Below are positions 4,736 to 54,718 of a DNA stretch of 64,000 nucleotides, piece by piece. Numbering within the stretch: the first letter of the stretch is position 1; every line of letters begins with the position of its first letter. Source of the DNA: a phage; the sequence record NC_101838.1, one strand, 5' to 3'. The translations under genes and the position numbers were made by a program. Below the pieces are notes generated by a model that did no database searches, had not been told where the DNA came from, and was given only the letters and a program-made list of their open reading frames with translations.

Positions 4736-7513
4736 ATGAGTATGTGGTCTTTCGATTTTGAGTCATCCGGTTTGCTGGAAGACCCAGATCTTTATTATCA
4801 CTGCGGTCTGTTTAAAGAGCTGAATAAGAACCGTTTTATGCTGTTCCTTCCTCTAAATGACCGCACACACTACTCCGAGGAGGATATAGAAAAGGCTAAG
4901 AACTTCATTCTGGCAAAGAAAACTCTTTATAAAGATTTTGAAGTTCGCATAGCAGATTTTTCGGAGTTGGAAGGTTGGCTTACAGGCAATTCTGACTGGT
5001 CACCAACAGCTTTGAACTGCCATAACTGCTACAGTTATGACTTTATGCTAATGGAAAGATTATCCGGTATTCATTTTGATATGTTCCGTGATCCTAAATG
5101 CATGGGGACTATCAACGACCACCAGGTTAACCTGTTTGATACGTTGGCGATGAGCAGAATCTTGTGGCCTGATCGCCCTTTACCAAAAGGTTGTCCGGAC
5201 TCTGTATTCAACCCGGTTACTAAGAAAATGCAGCCTGTTGGTCCTCACGGCCTTATGGCATGGGGCTACGCCCTTGGTAACCAGAAAGTTCAAATTGATG
5301 ACTGGCGAGATCTTCCGTTGTGGAAGTATGTGGATCGTGTATTCGAGGACGTTATCATCCAGGAGCTGCTCTGGAAAGAGCTGGTAGCGGAATCAAAAGG
5401 TGTATTCTACGGCAAATCTGACATGCAGAACTTTATGTACGATCCAGCCAAAGAGAAGCCGAAAGGGTTCAAGAAAATCACCTGGAAGAACGCATTACGC
5501 CGAGGCATGCTGCAGCACTTCCTGATGGAGCTGCAGGCCCGTCAGGGTGTGTATTTCGACATAGATGGGGCTATTGCTTTACGTGACCGTTGCGATGCGT
5601 GGATGAAAGAGATCGCTGATCGTGTTGAACCTCAACTTCCTTTAAAAGAGTTGTCAATGTCTCAGCGGCCCAAGTTCCCTGAAAAGCCGTTTAACCAAGA
5701 TGGGACAATCTCCAATAATGGTTGGAAATGGTTAAAAGATAAGCTTGGCTATCCTGTAGACATGAGCGCTTTAGAATTCAAAGCCCCGCCTAAGCGAGCA
5801 TTTACCTCCACAGGAGATGTCAGCAAGATGGGGATAAAATGGTGCGAAGAGATGGGCTGCAAAGACCCCGACAAGATGGCTGATTTCTTGAGAGGTTATA
5901 TTAAGGGCACCTCCACACCACAACCTTTACCTAAAGAGCTGATGGATCAGGCAATAAGTGATCTGCAGCAGAAGCGAATGCCTGACTGCAAGATACCTAT
6001 GAAAATCAGCAATCAGGACGACATTAAGCGATACCTGATCAGTGCTGGTTGGCTTCCGACAATGTGGAGAACTAAGGATGTAACTAAGGACAGCAAGAAG
6101 AAAGCTCTACCTGATGCAGATGTTGATGCACGAGTATATGCATACATGGACGAGCTTTTAGAGTCAGAGTATTGTGACCTAATTATCAACTTCTGGAACA
6201 AAACTGATGCTAAGTTTCAGACAACAGTGCACAAGTTCCGAAGCTTTCCTAACTCCGAAAGGATTAAAAAGGAAGTGTTCGGGAAAATACGCAGAAAAGC
6301 CAGGGCACTTATTACTTCTCCGCAACTGAAAGATACGTTTGGACACCTATGTCCGAATCTTGAAAAATTGAACGGAGAGATGGCTAAAGATATCGTCTTG
6401 TGGTTATCATTGCGAAACCGCAGATCGGTCCTTGATCCAATCAAGGAGGATAAGGTTGATACTGGTCTTCTTAATCACCCACGTTTGAAGATTGACCATA
6501 AGCTTCCTGCTAAAAGCTCTGGATTAACAAACACTTCCCGACAGAAACACAGTATTTGTGCAAACATGCCTAAACCATCTCCTAAAGTGGTTATGGGTAA
6601 AGAGATGCGTAGCTTGTGGGGTGTTCCTCCTGGATATTTTGAGATCGGTATTGACGGGTCCAACTTAGAGCAGCTTATCGGGGCTTGGGGTGCCTTTGAG
6701 TTCGACAACGGCTTGTACTATGATGTTGTAAGTAACGGAGACGCACACCAAAACAATGCTGAGGCATATACAAAAGTAGCAGGCAGAGAGGTGTCTCGTA
6801 ACGACGGTAAACCTATCACGTATGGGGTTATGTACGGGGCACAAAAAGATAAAGTTGCAGATATGCTGGATATCTCCCCAGAGTTGGGGCAAAGGGTGAT
6901 CGATGCACTTTGGGATGCCAACCCCGGTCTTAAGGGGCGCAAAGAGGATCTGGAGAAATTCTGGGAAGCAACAGGTAAGAAGTTTATCTACTCTTTTGAT
7001 GGTCATGCTATCTGGACCCGATCTAAACACTCTTTACTTAATGCATACCAACAAAATGGTGGTGCATCGCTGTGTGACTTAGTTGGGATACTCATGCACC
7101 ACCAAATGGTGAAGCGTGGGTGGTACGATGAAGGTGTCCGTCGTATTATCTATTACCATGACGAATATCAGCTTCAAGTGCCTGACACACCGAAGTATAA
7201 GACTGTGTACACCTTCGACACAATTGAAGAACTGGAAGCATTTAAGGCAGAGCAGGAAGCCAAACTTCATGTGTTCGACGGTCATAAGTACAAAAAGGCA
7301 CGCAAGGATGAGGACGGAAACGAAGTGGTTGACAGAGACGGAAACACGGTGTACGATCCTATCCTGAACGATGACGGAAAGCTTGAACTTATCTGGAGCC
7401 CTGTGGGTGAAATGGTGGTGCATTGCTTCTGGCAAGCTTCTAAAATGATGGGAGTCCCGTTCCAGATCACAGGTGAATACTTGTGTGGTCGTAACTGGGG
7501 TGATTGTCACTAA
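4736..7513 (+). CDS. DNA polymerase, family A (Pol I-like) with 3'-5' exonuclease domain
   Basis: Exo I motif FDFESSG; Pol A motif B KPITYGVMYGAQ; motif C YHDEYQ; AAGGAGA RBS. Confidence 0.9.
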   Translation: MSMWSFDFESSGLLEDPDLYYHCGLFKELNKNRFMLFLPLNDRTHYSEEDIEKAKNFILAKKTLYKDFEVRIADFSELEGWLTGNSDWSPTALNCHNCYSYDFMLMERLSGIHFDMFRDPKCMGTINDHQVNLFDTLAMSRILWPDRPLPKGCPDSVFNPVTKKMQPVGPHGLMAWGYALGNQKVQIDDWRDLPLWKYVDRVFEDVIIQELLWKELVAESKGVFYGKSDMQNFMYDPAKEKPKGFKKITWKNALRRGMLQHFLMELQARQGVYFDIDGAIALRDRCDAWMKEIADRVEPQLPLKELSMSQRPKFPEKPFNQDGTISNNGWKWLKDKLGYPVDMSALEFKAPPKRAFTSTGDVSKMGIKWCEEMGCKDPDKMADFLRGYIKGTSTPQPLPKELMDQAISDLQQKRMPDCKIPMKISNQDDIKRYLISAGWLPTMWRTKDVTKDSKKKALPDADVDARVYAYMDELLESEYCDLIINFWNKTDAKFQTTVHKFRSFPNSERIKKEVFGKIRRKARALITSPQLKDTFGHLCPNLEKLNGEMAKDIVLWLSLRNRRSVLDPIKEDKVDTGLLNHPRLKIDHKLPAKSSGLTNTSRQKHSICANMPKPSPKVVMGKEMRSLWGVPPGYFEIGIDGSNLEQLIGAWGAFEFDNGLYYDVVSNGDAHQNNAEAYTKVAGREVSRNDGKPITYGVMYGAQKDKVADMLDISPELGQRVIDALWDANPGLKGRKEDLEKFWEATGKKFIYSFDGHAIWTRSKHSLLNAYQQNGGASLCDLVGILMHHQMVKRGWYDEGVRRIIYYHDEYQLQVPDTPKYKTVYTFDTIEELEAFKAEQEAKLHVFDGHKYKKARKDEDGNEVVDRDGNTVYDPILNDDGKLELIWSPVGEMVVHCFWQASKMMGVPFQITGEYLCGRNWGDCH

Positions 7514-25339: not shown

Positions 25340-25612
25340 ATGTTAAGCTGGATTAACCAAGAAGTTGAATCACGTTTTAATGCTATTTGGGATCTCATCG
25401 AAAAAGAGGACGGAACATCAAGCCCTTATCTCAATAATCTTGAATTCCATTTCGTGGAAGCGATGAACGCAGAACATGATCACGAAGGTGGTGCGGATGA
25501 ATTCGCTAAAGGATATGGCTTCAACAATGCCAACGAAATGATCGAGGCGGTTGTACTCCAGGCTGAGGAAGATTATCAATTAAAAACGCTTGAATTCTGC
25601 CGCCGTAAGTAA
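25340..25612 (+). CDS. hypothetical protein
   Basis: ATG after GAGAGGAAAA RBS (track start 25256). Confidence 0.5.
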   Translation: MLSWINQEVESRFNAIWDLIEKEDGTSSPYLNNLEFHFVEAMNAEHDHEGGADEFAKGYGFNNANEMIEAVVLQAEEDYQLKTLEFCRRK

Positions 25613-25674
25613 TAAGATAATGACACGGGCCAAAAGGCCCACTAAACAAAAACCACATAAAGAGGAAAAACATC

Positions 25675-25938
25675 ATGAAACGCCTTGATCAGCTCAAATT
25701 AGTTCAATATATGGCTTATCGTGTTCTTGAAGTCCAGAAAGGTAGCAAAAAAGAGGTTTGCGAGAAAGCTTATAAGATCTTCACTCGCAAAAAAGATGAC
25801 TGGATGCTGCGCCAGACTAAAAAGGCTGACATCTTGGGGTACCTGGAAGAAGAGATCCGCCTTGAAGAGCAAGAAGAGATCCGCCGTAGTGAGGCAGATT
25901 ATCAGGCAGCTTGGGAAAACTGGATGAGCAACAAATAA
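25675..25938 (+). CDS. hypothetical protein
   Basis: AAAGAGGA RBS. Confidence 0.55.
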   Translation: MKRLDQLKLVQYMAYRVLEVQKGSKKEVCEKAYKIFTRKKDDWMLRQTKKADILGYLEEEIRLEEQEEIRRSEADYQAAWENWMSNK

Positions 25939-26003
25939 TACAACAAGTTACGGTCAGGGGGTAATAAAGCCCCTTGATCACATAAAAATTATGCTATCCC
26001 TGG

Positions 26004-26032
26004 TTGACAGGGATCGGCAGTTTTGCTATATT
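26004..26032 (+). promoter_or_regulatory. sigma70 promoter
   Basis: TTGACA-N17-TATATT. Confidence 0.55.
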
Positions 26033-26081
26033 CTTTTTTGAAGGGAAGTTGTAAGAAAATTAACTAAGAGGTAAAAACACC

Positions 26082-26501
26082 ATGAACATTAAATCTAATA
26101 ATCCGGCATATAGCTTTGATAACGCTTTTTGTCACGGTCCGGCGGCGAAAGGATTCGAAATCGATGGTAAACTAATTATTGTCAATGTTGACGGGGAAGA
26201 GGTTGCAGTATATCCGGTGGCAGACGTAAAAAGCCGTTTACAATGCCGCATGGATGTTACCGCCTATCAGCTTGATCCGGTTCGCATAGTTGCCCTGGTC
26301 CTGGAAGAAGAAATTAAAGCCATGCACCATAGCAACAGGTTTATTGGTGACGCTCAGGATAATATGAAGGTGTGCCGCCATAAAGTTAATGAAGTGCTTA
26401 AAGAGTACGGCTATAAAGATCTTATGATCAAACGTGATGAAAAATTCCGCTACCGTAACGACCTGGCAAATCGGATTTTTGAAATATACGAATCATTATA
26501 A
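26082..26501 (+). CDS. hypothetical protein
   Basis: AAGAGG RBS. Confidence 0.55.
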   Translation: MNIKSNNPAYSFDNAFCHGPAAKGFEIDGKLIIVNVDGEEVAVYPVADVKSRLQCRMDVTAYQLDPVRIVALVLEEEIKAMHHSNRFIGDAQDNMKVCRHKVNEVLKEYGYKDLMIKRDEKFRYRNDLANRIFEIYESL

Positions 26502-26519
26502 TTTTTTAACTGAATTATC

Positions 26520-26546
26520 AAGGGGCTTAGCCCCTTTCTTTTTGTC
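26520..26546 (+). terminator. rho-independent terminator closing the plus-strand block
   Basis: AAGGGGC-TTA-GCCCCTT followed by TCTTTTT. Confidence 0.65.
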
Positions 26547-27464
26547 TGCTCTTCCCCCTACCATAAACGGCCCTACCTGGAAAGTGGAATAATTGACGAG
26601 CCATCAATCCCACACACTGTACAAACATACATGTAAAATAGCTATTGCATAACCTTTCATTGTGTGGTAGCGGTGCTATTTTTTACCAGTTTTCCTTCCA
26701 AAATTGCACGTAATGCAGCTATTGCATAAATTTTAACCTGATGCATATCTTCAATATCTTGTCAACAAATAAAAATTCTTATAAGTCATACACTTATACC
26801 CCCACAAAAGCGTTCTCTACGTGAAAAATCGGGCATAACTATAGCCGCCAGATCTCAGAATTTACGTACGCTCGCCATTCTATAGCCTGCTAAGTATTTA
26901 TTCCAACCATAGAATAATGGAATAGTCAATACCTGAATAAAATAATTATTCGTTTAAACTGCATAACATAAATCAGCTCAGGTGTCAACATTTTTCGTAA
27001 ACAGTCTTAAATTGTCACTGTGAGTTATCATAAACAGAGAAATCTTTAGTCGTCTAATGTTTACTGTACGTTACTATACTGACTGGAATCATTAGATGAC
27101 TAATAGAAAGATAAGAAATAATTAACGATACAATTATTTTACCTGTAACAATAAGGCAACTATGCAAACGAATGGCATGGCGCGACGGAGTCGCGACATA
27201 ATATAAAAGCAGTAACCATCACCCCCGTGATAGTTTGTCTGCAAACTATTAATCAGATCATAGTTGCCTTGTATTTAGTTAATCATGACATAACAAGCAA
27301 GGCAACTATAGATCTTCTAATAGTTGCCCTGCTTTTATATTATGTCATGCTAATTATAATCAGTGCGATTATTGTCATGCAAACGAATGGCATGGCTTAT
27401 CATCTCTGTGTAAACAATCTATGCGTGAACAGTGAAACATGAAATAATAACAGTCGTTATTGTG

Positions 27465-27520
27465 TCAAGTATTCCGATTGTGTCACCATTGTGTCTAAAG
27501 TGTCATATTGTGTCAGACAA
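27465..27520. repeat. four closely spaced ATTGTGTCA-type direct repeats
   Basis: ttattgtgtcaag, attgtgtcacc, attgtgtctaa, tattgtgtcagac in tandem. Confidence 0.5.
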
Positions 27521-27969
27521 GTTTTTCTCCTCTTTGTCAAGTGCTGCATGAAAAATTTACAAACTGGTATGGTAGCATTTTTGCGGACCTGTTTACATTC
27601 AGGAGTGTATGTATAATCCTTGTTGTGTGGGCGTTTATACGTCTGGACGGTCAGAAGTCTGCAGGTTAATATCTAATCTATTGGCTGCTAACTATATCCC
27701 ACACAAATGATAAGAAATATAATTGTTATATGCGTAAACTGTAACTCATGTTATCAATCCCTGTATGGATCGCCAGTGGTGCGCATAATGGGTATTATGT
27801 TAAATTGCCCGTAATGATAAAGGTTCTCACAATGATAGGTATTCTCATTCACCCTCACAAAATAGATTGCAAATGTTGTGCCACTGTGTGAACGGCCTCA
27901 CCTATTAATTTGCCTCACTGCCTCGATATTTGAGAATTATTATAAGAATGAGAAGTATTCCCATTCCGT

Positions 27970-28330
27970 CCGCCTGGCAGCACTCCTGTAGGTCCTGCAA
28001 GGACTCTAGCTTTCAGCTAGACCCTTCGGGCCTCCCTGTAGGTCAGGTCAAAATCGGGGTAGAATTGGGCCTATTCAGATATTTCTGGCTGACTCTTCAG
28101 GTCTGTGTGGGAAAAGCCAACCTCTCCGGCGGGGCAGGGGGATATCTGCGGGAAAATTGCAGGTCAATTAAAAAATTTACGTGGTATATGAAGCGCTCTT
28201 CAGGTAAGGCATGTATTATGGGATGAAACCCTCTTCAGGCAATGATATTTGTGGGTGTGATATTTGCTGGAAAGCCAGATATGACGGGACTCCCGGCGGG
28301 GCAGGGGTGGTACAGACAGGGAAAATATGA
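27970..28330. repeat. degenerate repeat cluster in non-coding DNA
   Basis: Recurring CCTGTAGGTC (x2), CCGGCGGGGCAGGGG (x2) and CTCTTCAGG units. Confidence 0.45.
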
Positions 28331-29005
28331 AGGATGTGGTTGGGTAGATTGATCAGACAGGTAGAGTATGGAATATGTTACAAGTATGTTAAATATGGAG
28401 GTTGAATATCTGTAGGATTTGTGTGTAAAATCAAAGACTTAAGTGGTGTTGTGGTATTTTCTATAAATAATTCAAGTTTAATAGGCAATATTTGTCTCTA
28501 TCCGCTTTGTGTGGTAAACAGATTCAGATTAGATTGGTTTACAAGTGTATACATAATATACAAATTAAAGATACAAGAAACCCCCCCTCCCCCCTTCGGC
28601 TACCATTCACCTTTTCCTCTGACTGGTACTTAAACACTTATTCAGACTCTTCAGGTTATCACCCATATATCATATGGCAGTGACTGGTGTCCTCCGGCCC
28701 CTCTTTCGTCACCCGTCCGCTTCGCCATGCTAATGCCATAGCTAATGGTTCGGTTGTTCACCCTGTTCACTCAGGTGTATCTCTATACCCCTTCAAACCG
28801 AAGAGAACAGAAAACCCGAATTACTCGGTAAAAGAAAAGAGAAGAACTTAATTTTATCAGGATAGGCAAGAATGTCAAGGTATGACTGCTCACTAAACAA
28901 GCAAACAGTCATGTGTGGGAGGTAAGTGATTGTGGTGGTAGGAAATTTAGTTGAAAGATGTGTTATAGGTGCTTCCAGCACTTTAGCCGGGCAGCTAATT
29001 GTGTG

Positions 29006-29221
29006 TCAGTCCAGCGGTTCATCCTCTACTTCACTGAAATCAATGTTCATGGTCTCTTCCCAACCATCGATCTCAGCACAAGAGTGGAGTTCTTTAGGGT
29101 TTACTCCCAAAGCCTCAGCAACAGAGTCTATATTTAACACCTCTGGCAGGTATGATTCATCGAATTCAAGGTAAATCAGGCCACGAGTGTTGTCAGCTCC
29201 ACCAAATATCTCTATCTTCAT
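29006..29221 (-). CDS. hypothetical acidic protein
   Basis: AGAGGAGA RBS. Confidence 0.45.
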   Translation of the reverse strand: MKIEIFGGADNTRGLIYLEFDESYLPEVLNIDSVAEALGVNPKELHSCAEIDGWEETMNIDFSEVEDEPLD

Positions 29222-29342
29222 AAAATCTCCTCTGGGAATGAAAGTGTGAACAGGGTTTTATACGTTCTAATGCACAGGAATTATACACGTTTGCCTCTTC
29301 AGGCCATGCTTTAGCATGAGGAACCTGTGTGGGCTCGGTGCT

Positions 29343-29555
29343 TCATAGTCTACCACCTCTGAACTCTTCGTGCTCAGGCATAATAGAGAACCAGATATCT
29401 ACGATGTCTTCCCACGTTAGGTCATCAGCCTCAGGATCTACCTGGAGCGAAGATGGAGAATCTTCAGAATCTAAGTTTTCCTCTTTCACTGGCTCAGCCA
29501 AGGGACATATAGTCACTCCTTTGGATGTCTCTTCAGATGCATGTGTGTTTATCAT
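29343..29555 (-). CDS. hypothetical acidic protein
   Basis: ORF. Confidence 0.4.
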   Translation of the reverse strand: MINTHASEETSKGVTICPLAEPVKEENLDSEDSPSSLQVDPEADDLTWEDIVDIWFSIMPEHEEFRGGRL

Positions 29556-29653
29556 GTTCCACCCGTGAGTATTCCGGCAACAGCCGCTATGGACGTAATG
29601 ATCATCAGGATCACCACTAAAACTTCGGACAATGTTCTCATTGTGTACTCCAT
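29552..29653 (-). CDS. small membrane peptide (33 aa, not in ORF track)
   Basis: ATG downstream of promoter; hydrophobic core; stop overlaps next start. Confidence 0.3.
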   Translation of the reverse strand: MEYTMRTLSEVLVVILMIITSIAAVAGILTGGT

Positions 29654-29668
29654 ATTCTACAAACTATG

Positions 29669-29699
29669 TGTGGATACTATCACTGGATCGGTAATGTGT
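29669..29699 (-). promoter_or_regulatory. sigma70 promoter for the last minus-strand genes
   Basis: On minus strand TTGACA-N17-TAGTAT; the -35 lies inside a tandem 17-bp direct repeat. Confidence 0.5.
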
Positions 29700-29883
29700 C
29701 AACAGTCGGTAATGTGTCAACAGAAACGCCGCGAGGGTTTGGTTAAAATCCGAGCGTATGGTGATTTGGGTCAAAACGGACGTGCGTTCTCGCTACGCTC
29801 GAAATATGGAGTTGTTTGTAGGGAGCTCTTAAACGCTCTGTAATGAGATTAACTGCCCAAGGTATGCAATCGTGCACCAGATA

Positions 29884-29912
29884 AAGAAAAGGACGCCACA
29901 GAGCGTCCTAGG
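29884..29912 (-). terminator. rho-independent terminator (minus strand)
   Basis: GGACGC-loop-GCGTCC followed on minus strand by TTTTCTTTAT. Confidence 0.5.
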
Positions 29913-29933
29913 TGTCTTAAATTTGATATTTTG

Positions 29934-30245
29934 CTATACCCACGAGGGCTTATCAAGGTTGGAGTAGCTGAAAGGTGTCAAAAGGTGACTGTCAAAATCT
30001 CTCAAACTATCCAAATCTTTTTCCTCGTCCTGACACCATCTGTGCCTACATTTGTTGTTGTAGTGCATGGAATGCATAGCGTTCTGCAACTTAACAGGCA
30101 CAAGTGATTCAGGAGTAGATAGTATTGTTGGGTATGCCAGAACCACCTCAAACAGTGGAAACACATCGAAACTAAAGTCTACCTCTGCAGAGGTTGATGG
30201 CATGTAGGAGTATTTAGCCGCCTTTGTAGACATAATCCACCTCAC
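29934..30245 (-). CDS. hypothetical protein
   Basis: ORF, overlap-coupled. Confidence 0.45.
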   Translation of the reverse strand: MRWIMSTKAAKYSYMPSTSAEVDFSFDVFPLFEVVLAYPTILSTPESLVPVKLQNAMHSMHYNNKCRHRWCQDEEKDLDSLRDFDSHLLTPFSYSNLDKPSWV

Positions 30246-53734: not shown

Positions 53735-54718
53735 TTAACCTTTCACGAAGTGGTTATTAAGCAGTTGTCTGTGCTGAACCCACCCACAAAAGTTGGCAGA
53801 CCAGAATTTACCATCACGGTCTTGATGGGTTACACCTTCCTGCCAAGTACTGATGTCTTGTGTGATTTCACATGAAGACAGGTAGTAGTTTAAACGTTCC
53901 ATTGCGTTATCGTGATCCATAGGTGTTGCCTGGTGCTCGTAAGGGCTTGCATGAATACGATCCCCACCAATCAATTTTTTAGCCACACTATCTGCCTTTT
54001 CAAACGTGCTGTCAATATTTCGATAAGATACTTGTGCACAGCAACTAGCACTGATAGACAGAGCTTCTTTAGTATCGAGAATGCAGAGCTTTCCTTCTGT
54101 GTCACGTACAGCGTAGTTAAACTCTCCGTCCAAATAAACGTGCTCTACATATGGGGTGTGCCATTGACCCGGTTTAAGGATTTCAGGAGTGCTATTCTCA
54201 AGAGCCTCCCACATACAATTAGCTAACATCTGAATCGTAGGATCCGCATCGTGCCAGCAACGGAGGTGGAAAAAATTATTCCACTCGGTGCTTGTTACAA
54301 CTGTTTTCATGCGCTGGAACGGCTCCACTAAGCGGTTACATACTTGCTTATGGTAACCAGCAAGGGCGAACTTCTCTGCATGCCAAGCGGCGTTTTTTGC
54401 AGCTTCTTTCCAAAACTCTTCAGGAGTTAGCTCCATGTCAGTGTACTCTACACGGATCTTTTGATCGTGTTCCCCACCATCTTCCATTCCTCGCTTATTT
54501 ACACCGAAGCGAACTGGCATTGCCGGATTCTCCACAATCTGTTGCAGCATCTTGCCGACAGGTACTGCACGGGAAGACATGGCGTTTCGGCTGAACACTC
54601 GGTGCGTCATAAGCTCTGAGTGAATAATTCGAGGATACTCTAGTTCAAAAGTGGTGATACGCTTACCTTTCTCGGAAATGCTGTCAGCAATAATCTTTGC
54701 AGTGCACAGTTTTAGCAT
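53735..54718 (-). CDS. thyX: flavin-dependent thymidylate synthase (ThyX-like)
   Basis: THRVFSRNAMSS fits ThyX signature (R)HRx7S. Confidence 0.65.
   Translation of the reverse strand: MLKLCTAKIIADSISEKGKRITTFELEYPRIIHSELMTHRVFSRNAMSSRAVPVGKMLQQIVENPAMPVRFGVNKRGMEDGGEHDQKIRVEYTDMELTPEEFWKEAAKNAAWHAEKFALAGYHKQVCNRLVEPFQRMKTVVTSTEWNNFFHLRCWHDADPTIQMLANCMWEALENSTPEILKPGQWHTPYVEHVYLDGEFNYAVRDTEGKLCILDTKEALSISASCCAQVSYRNIDSTFEKADSVAKKLIGGDRIHASPYEHQATPMDHDNAMERLNYYLSSCEITQDISTWQEGVTHQDRDGKFWSANFCGWVQHRQLLNNHFVKG

Follow-up and report, generated by a model that had tools for sequence, protein, structure and literature searches.

What a cluster of short, same-orientation repeats is doing in a gene-free part of a phage genome is the question raised by the locus at 27459–27515 of the window, the window being the whole stretch of 64,000 nucleotides of DNA analysed here. 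The window belongs to an rV5-like coliphage of the genus Vequintavirus, a 137-kb myovirus, and approximately 120 GenBank phage records were found to match the region, with identities of roughly 80–99%, mostly 90–95%. The repeats are located in an ORF-free zone of about 2.4 kb that separates two convergent gene arms, the plus-strand arm on the left stopping at 26501 and the minus-strand arm on the right starting at about 29000. An intrinsic terminator on the plus strand (26520–26536) closes the left arm and forms the left limit of the ORF-free terminal zone. The GC content of the zone goes down to 0.38, and the GC skew switches where the transcription direction changes, which is how the authors of the rV5 genome paper explained the switch; their map shows the zone as an unexplained 'non-coding' box between genes 163 and 164 (PMC3606486). 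No match was returned by an Rfam scan of 25500–30000 at E <= 1.

Several features were also observed around the zone. The two genes upstream of it, at 25675–25938 and 26082–26501, were deposited as 'DNA translocase FtsK' and 'contains Rel homology domain', annotations for which no Pfam support was obtained, and both genes belong to PHROG families of unknown function. A gene of 139 aa just upstream of the zone is present in some relatives and missing from others. About 18 GenBank records named 'Campylobacter phage' (MG0656xx, host C. jejuni) are 90–95% identical to 26500–28500 and probably represent assemblies that were mislabelled or derive from a contaminant. An 18-bp tandem duplication (TCGGTAATGTGTCAACAG twice, with copies at 29689 and 29707) occupies 29689–29724; on the minus strand it represents a doubled -35 region of a genuine-looking, sigma-70-like promoter (TTGACA-17-TAGTAT) that precedes the first minus-strand genes, and it has the GTGTCA core in common with the array, yet is a separate feature.

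Reading of the window together with an exact-match scan revealed an array of five units, all on the plus strand. Units 1 (27459–27467) and 2 (27477–27485) are exact copies of ATTGTGTCA, unit 3 (27488–27496) is ATTGTGTCT, with one mismatch, unit 4 (27497–27505) is AAAGTGTCA, a degenerate form with a GTGTCA core, and unit 5 (27507–27515) is again an exact ATTGTGTCA. Units and TGTCA cores alike follow one another at distances of 18, 11, 9 and 10 nt. The exact ATTGTGTCA is present in three copies against 0.9 expected, with no others on either strand of the 64-kb window. GTGTC occurs five times within 60 nt at the array, compared with a maximum of two elsewhere in the window, and in 200 Markov-1 simulations of the window the count per 60 nt was never above three; because this density exceeds both the simulations and the rest of the window, the array is genuine and non-random. 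The original prediction had placed four repeats at 27465–27520, of which the array itself was borne out, with the number corrected to five and the span to 27459–27515, as the earlier count had omitted the AAAGTGTCA unit and the true start lies slightly further left. A second plus-strand repeat family of about 15 bp (..RTGTAAACAGT..; TRF period 15) is represented by two copies at 27402–27434, with cores at 27410 and 27425, and the 9–11-bp units and this family together constitute a hypervariable tandem-repeat zone to the left of the direct terminal repeat (DTR).

The final base of the array, 27515, directly precedes the start of the DTR of the virion chromosome, with a gap of zero nt. This DTR, which was placed by homology, covers 459 bp (27516–27974, GACAAGTTTTTC...CGTCCGCC). 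A megablast of 27516–27974 located the segment at positions 1–459 and again at the other end of the records of EdH4, ECP2309 and Gotham, so that the ECP2309 record contains window 27516–27974 at both ends, and both copies are annotated as repeat_region in the Gotham record. The record of Pr121LW (USA) starts at the equivalent of 27516, the G of GACAAGTTTTTC, directly after the last ATTGTGTCA; the record of ECP2303 (China), which has the opposite orientation, ends at the same base; and the record of bov11CS3 (Hungary) has its break at 27974/27975. Published DTR results from PhageTerm or coverage exist for LL12, Gotham and EdH4, and the PhageTerm DTR of LL12 (104966–105424, GACAAG...CGTCCGCC, 459 bp) corresponds base for base to window 27516–27974. 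Because the LL12 coordinates map exactly, the array is taken to end on the last unique base before the DTR, the boundaries of this isolate being those given by homology. Terminal redundancies of 458 bp for EdH4 and HdK5 and a terminal repeat of 328 bp for Schickermooser have been published (PMC6563267). The window DTR shows 95–97% identity to the DTRs of most relatives, and the junction sequences are the same. Two announcements described rV5-like genomes as circularly permuted or headful by PhageTerm, and despite such announcements the bov phage records break exactly at the DTR boundary. A hairpin spanning the junction between array and DTR was no better than chance (z = 0.03).

Differential patterns of conservation were observed when the flank was read in 20 relatives drawn from GenBank phage records (19 distinct sequences); exact-pattern scans for relatives yielded two loci each in IMG/VR and in metagenome contigs. 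The junction RTGTCA/GACAAG, where the slash represents the DTR boundary, is invariant in 20 of 20 relatives, the flank ending as RTGTCA/GACAAGTTTT in each. The proximal units of these 20 relatives measure about 9–11 bp and take the form WWWRTGTCA or degenerate forms such as GTGTATAAG or GTGTCC, with one to five exact TGTCA cores per phage, separated by 9–11 nt or multiples of this distance. The distal units of about 15 bp number two in the window and about ten in rV5_ev147 and typing phage 4; DrSchubert is identical to Alma but for one additional unit, placed directly at the DTR boundary; and bov11CS3 and FV3 contain a single exact TGTCA together with degenerate units. Copy number and unit order differ widely among phages that are approximately 95% identical in their flanks. 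The periodic character RTGT(C)A is nevertheless kept in all 19 distinct sequences. In the last 60 nt the mean autocorrelation peaks at lags 9 and 18 (0.40 vs 0.26–0.31 in controls), the best lag being 9–10 or 18–20 in 18 of the 19 distinct sequences, and in the interval from -165 to -60 a peak appears at lag 15 (0.42). In a 14-sequence alignment the DTR displays a majority identity of 0.92–1.00 per 25-nt bin, with one bin at 0.85, while the value drops to 0.11–0.6 in the array zone, with many indel columns, making it the most variable stretch on the left side of the DTR. The array is conserved in kind, in its periodicity and its junction, with copy number left free, and to this extent the conservation among relatives that was to be expected of a protein-binding array was found.

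The right flank of the DTR (27975–28050) evolves differently, its first 12 nt being conserved and followed by an indel-variable segment in which hairpin-containing modules are lost or gained between short direct repeats. At the hot spot, 27995–28050, CTCCTGTAGGTC direct repeats enclose a module that is about 50 nt long, contains two small hairpins and is present, replaced or deleted depending on the relative. No tandem repeat family was found on the right DTR flank at 27975–28100, and the tandem repeats are therefore one-sided, as the right flank varies by hairpin modules in place of a tandem array. Outside the genus, a single case is available for comparison, the Klebsiella phage KPP-1 (Mydovirus), for which a 514-bp DTR was reported from coverage and PhageTerm (PMC9862379). 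KPP-1 has unrelated two-copy direct repeats on the same DTR flank and none on the other, a one-sidedness that is weakly concordant with the pattern of the window. Farther to the right a 9-mer, CTCTTCAGG, was observed seven times in the window, always on the plus strand, vs 0.51 expected, at positions 28093, 28196, 28231, 28647 and 29295, and also at 54416 and 55283. Five of the copies are situated 0.58–1.8 kb inward from the genome end, with the DTR between them and the array; most copies recur at similar offsets in six relatives, with three to five copies each, and one copy is found within the DTR of KPP-1 (L028 position 1604).

To the left of the array a long, hairpin-capable and near-invariant inverted repeat was identified at 27175–27350, that is, 170–340 nt left of the DTR start. 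It has perfect 18-nt arms (27195–27212 and 27329–27346) and nested ATAGTTGCC/GGCAACTAT arms, and its ssDNA minimum free energy of -55.7 kcal/mol (z = -9.3) indicates that a very stable hairpin or cruciform is possible. The sequence is essentially unchanged in 14 relatives, and because of this near-invariance it offers no covariation signal to score. A 20-nt direct repeat, ATGCAAACGAATGGCATGGC, flanks the inverted repeat at 27162 and 27377. In three relatives (L025, L027 and L023) the equivalent of 27350–27374, which the big inverted repeat borders on one side and the second ATGCAAACGAATGGCATGG copy on the other, is occupied by a variable-number TTAACTTGYTAATYGTTA-like short repeat or a GC-rich hairpin module; as relatives add yet another variable short repeat or hairpin module here, the stretch 27350–27515 is a mosaic of repeat families.

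These sequence comparisons place the array at the terminus-proximal end of a tandem-repeat zone, directly against the predicted left DTR boundary of the Vequintavirus chromosome. Because the last repeat ends directly before the 459-bp DTR, a role in genome-end formation and packaging is suggested, and with moderate confidence we regard the array as a candidate recognition or positioning array for terminase or for end processing. In concatemers, each of the reiterated RTGTCA units would reproduce the left half of the site at which the ends are cleaved, and on the unique side of the DTR the units may load and position an end-processing protein such as the terminase or its small subunit; the cut or nick would be made only where a unit is followed by GACAAG. 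The DTR would be duplicated in a T7-like manner, by nicks at both DTR boundaries and strand-displacement or hairpin-primed synthesis, and the upstream hairpin at 27175–27350 may take part in this duplication. For T7 concatemers, it has been reported that the repeat must be duplicated in a multi-step process, and a hairpin intermediate has been described (PMC4281155). The distal units are proposed to have an auxiliary, cooperative role, and the drift in their number and sequence would be accounted for in this way. Against this reading, bov11CS3 and FV3 manage with one exact TGTCA and degenerate units, so that several good copies are dispensable, and the period of 9–10 nt is a little under one helical turn. 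The variability of the array is also compatible with neutral slippage.

Such slippage is the core of the main rival explanation, in which the array is a non-functional by-product of DTR duplication, whose units come and go at the nick or primer terminus through unequal recombination or through slippage or stuttering of the polymerase, and selection acts on the last unit only, as part of the cut site. The wide variation in copy number and unit order between flanks of about 95% identity agrees with this, as do the single unit that DrSchubert has gained exactly at the boundary relative to Alma and the occurrence of phages with degenerate units only. A pure by-product would sit less easily with the periodic RTGT(C)A pattern retained in 19 of 19 distinct sequences, with the second, 15-nt family maintained alongside, and with the confinement of tandem repeats to one flank when processing takes place at both boundaries, and we consider it unlikely. 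Either recognition or stuttering may also be part of a larger picture, in which a large myovirus would possess a T7-style module for processing concatemer junctions, made up of the array and the invariant hairpin upstream of it, the RTGTCA units being either a loading platform that sets the DTR nick or sequence written by stuttering of the DTR-duplicating polymerase at that nick. This extended proposal is tentative and on balance doubtful. If it is true, the hypervariable array would be a tractable handle on the formation of exact short DTRs outside the T7 group, a process that is, to our knowledge, still poorly understood; and if the units were written by polymerase stuttering, their copy number would record the history of end processing.

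The other explanations turn on what lies downstream of the array and in the neighbouring genes. An operator array, with sites for a phage or host transcription factor controlling a promoter at the DTR start, would be in keeping with short direct repeats that recur about every 10 nt and with a TATAAT (27612–27617) that has a TTTACA (27592–27597) upstream, and transcription very early after entry of the DNA would fit a terminal position. The two hexamers are spaced by just 14 nt, however, a consensus scan returned no plus-strand sigma-70-type site downstream of the array, and TATAAT is changed to TATAAG in Pr121LW and to TATAAC in ECP2303. There is also no conserved ORF downstream, no regulator was detectable in the neighbouring genes, and hypervariability of the array contrasts with conservation of the putative promoter region, all of which makes the operator explanation distinctly improbable.

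Iterons of a replication origin within the ORF-free zone are a still less credible explanation and a highly improbable one, even though the region of the direct repeats is ORF-free and low in GC (0.38), with strong inverted repeats next to them, and the secondary origins of T7 lie near its genome ends. Iterons measure about 17–22 bp, usually with two-helical-turn phasing, compared with units of 9–11 bp spaced by 18, 11, 9 and 10 nt here, and unit number and sequence are not conserved among relatives. Replisomes of the T7 type, moreover, start from transcripts and not from an iteron-binding initiator. The rV5-like replisome is T7-like, because window ORF 4736–7513 encodes a family-A polymerase whose matches are annotated 'T7 like' and the rV5 paper describes a gp4-type primase-helicase (PMC3606486). 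The GC-skew switch that might mark an origin coincides with the change in transcription direction by which the rV5 authors explained it (PMC3606486). No initiator gene is adjacent, the nine neighbouring ORFs being without a Pfam domain and of unknown function in PHROG except for one 'transcriptional regulator' 3 kb away. As to an AT-rich unwinding element with DnaA boxes, the zone has the low GC content given above, and visual inspection revealed no DnaA-box-like sequence in or beside the array.

Host OmpR/PhoB-family sites (Pho-box-like TGTCA at about 10–11 nt), or a minus-strand run of TGACAC -35-like elements binding RNA polymerase, are an exceedingly remote prospect, with the TGTCA core at about 10–11-nt spacing and four weak minus-strand promoter-like scan matches in the array on one side and the lack of conservation of these sites among relatives on the other. 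As a Pho box (CTGTCATAWAWCTGTCAY, 18 nt, 11-nt phasing) the best match reached 12/18, a score of at least 12 being attained at 158 positions of the window, and no -10 element stands at the required distance of about 10 nt; the minus-strand TGACAC -35 candidates match at 9/12, with a poor -10, CACAAT.

Of what the original prediction had proposed about function, the general idea of same-orientation sites for a DNA-binding protein survives as the best reading, the sites being putative, and its two specific versions were not supported. The iteron version is contradicted by units of 9–11 bp that are hypervariable among phages about 95% identical on either side, by the absence of an adjacent initiator and by the T7-like replisome; the operator version lacks a conserved, correctly spaced promoter after the array, the 'promoter-like sequence' that had been noted downstream proving weak, with its hexamers 14 nt apart, no plus-strand scan match and a variable TATAAT.

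The DTR itself is already published, and short repeats beside a phage terminus are a kind of element already known. A preprint on two BASEL phages names the whole ORF-free zone 'terminal repeat region (region of repeated motifs ...)' and does not dissect it, and the literature searched contained no account of how the repeats are built from units, of their ending exactly at the DTR boundary, of the invariant junction or of the likeness to the right end of T7. Phages of the rV5-like group belong to the coliphages that are isolated most often, and typing sets and therapy cocktails include them. Vequintavirus records are opened at arbitrary positions, and in some announcements the genomes are described as permuted; the junction RTGTCA/GACAAG provides a simple landmark for orienting and correctly terminating Vequintavirus assemblies. 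The array is also nominated as a cis element for the packaging or end-processing machinery, with relevance to phage engineering and packageable vectors.

Among the known systems, the iterons of the lambda ori and the octamers of the P4 ori/crr resemble the array as clustered, same-orientation direct repeats in non-coding DNA. They differ from it in unit size and spacing, the window has no adjacent initiator gene, and the window array is hypervariable and located exactly at the chromosome terminus.

In its placement the array resembles the R sites of lambda cosB, the hexamer repeats of P1 pac and the pacL/pacR boxes of SPP1, which are terminase-recognition repeats near cut sites. Both there and in the window a short motif is present in several copies to one side of the position at which terminase cleaves, a predicted position here, and within tens of nt of it, as a plausible platform for an oligomeric small terminase, the binding being putative here. 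The array extends 0–57 nt from the 27515/27516 boundary, on the left flank only, which fits a cosB/pac-type placement (within about 100–200 nt). Those systems produce cohesive ends or headful permuted chromosomes, in contrast to the exact DTR here, and have no sequence similarity to the window array. The terminase genes of the present phage are located beyond the window.

The short repeat arrays of T7 reportedly owe their names, SRL and SRR, to Dunn and Studier (1983), and we know of no established function for them. In T7 (NC_001604), which has a DTR of 160 bp, 12 TAAAG units with a mostly 13-nt period begin 15 nt past the left DTR, and weaker CCTAAAG/CCTAAGG units stand ahead of the right DTR. 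About 190 nt before the right DTR lies the centre of an inverted repeat whose arms measure 19 nt, which gives the T7 right end the same order as the window, namely inverted repeat, short repeats and DTR. The T7 hairpin intermediate is said to map to this inverted repeat (Chung, Nardone and Hinkle, 1990). Both phages are further alike in a short, exact, non-permuted DTR (by homology for this isolate), in imperfect short direct repeats of one orientation in the unique DNA next to it, and in a T7-type DNA polymerase and primase-helicase. The T7 unit, on the other hand, is CCTAAAG with a 13-nt period, compared with the unrelated RTGTCA at 9–11 nt in the window; T7 has repeat arrays on both DTR flanks (SRL and SRR), whereas the window array occupies one flank only; the last unit in the window reaches the DTR boundary itself and supplies one half of the junction; the copy number of the window array is hypervariable between close relatives; and its host phage is a 137-kb myovirus. 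The Vequintavirus terminus may serve as a second system, evolutionarily distant from T7, for studying the formation of short exact terminal repeats.
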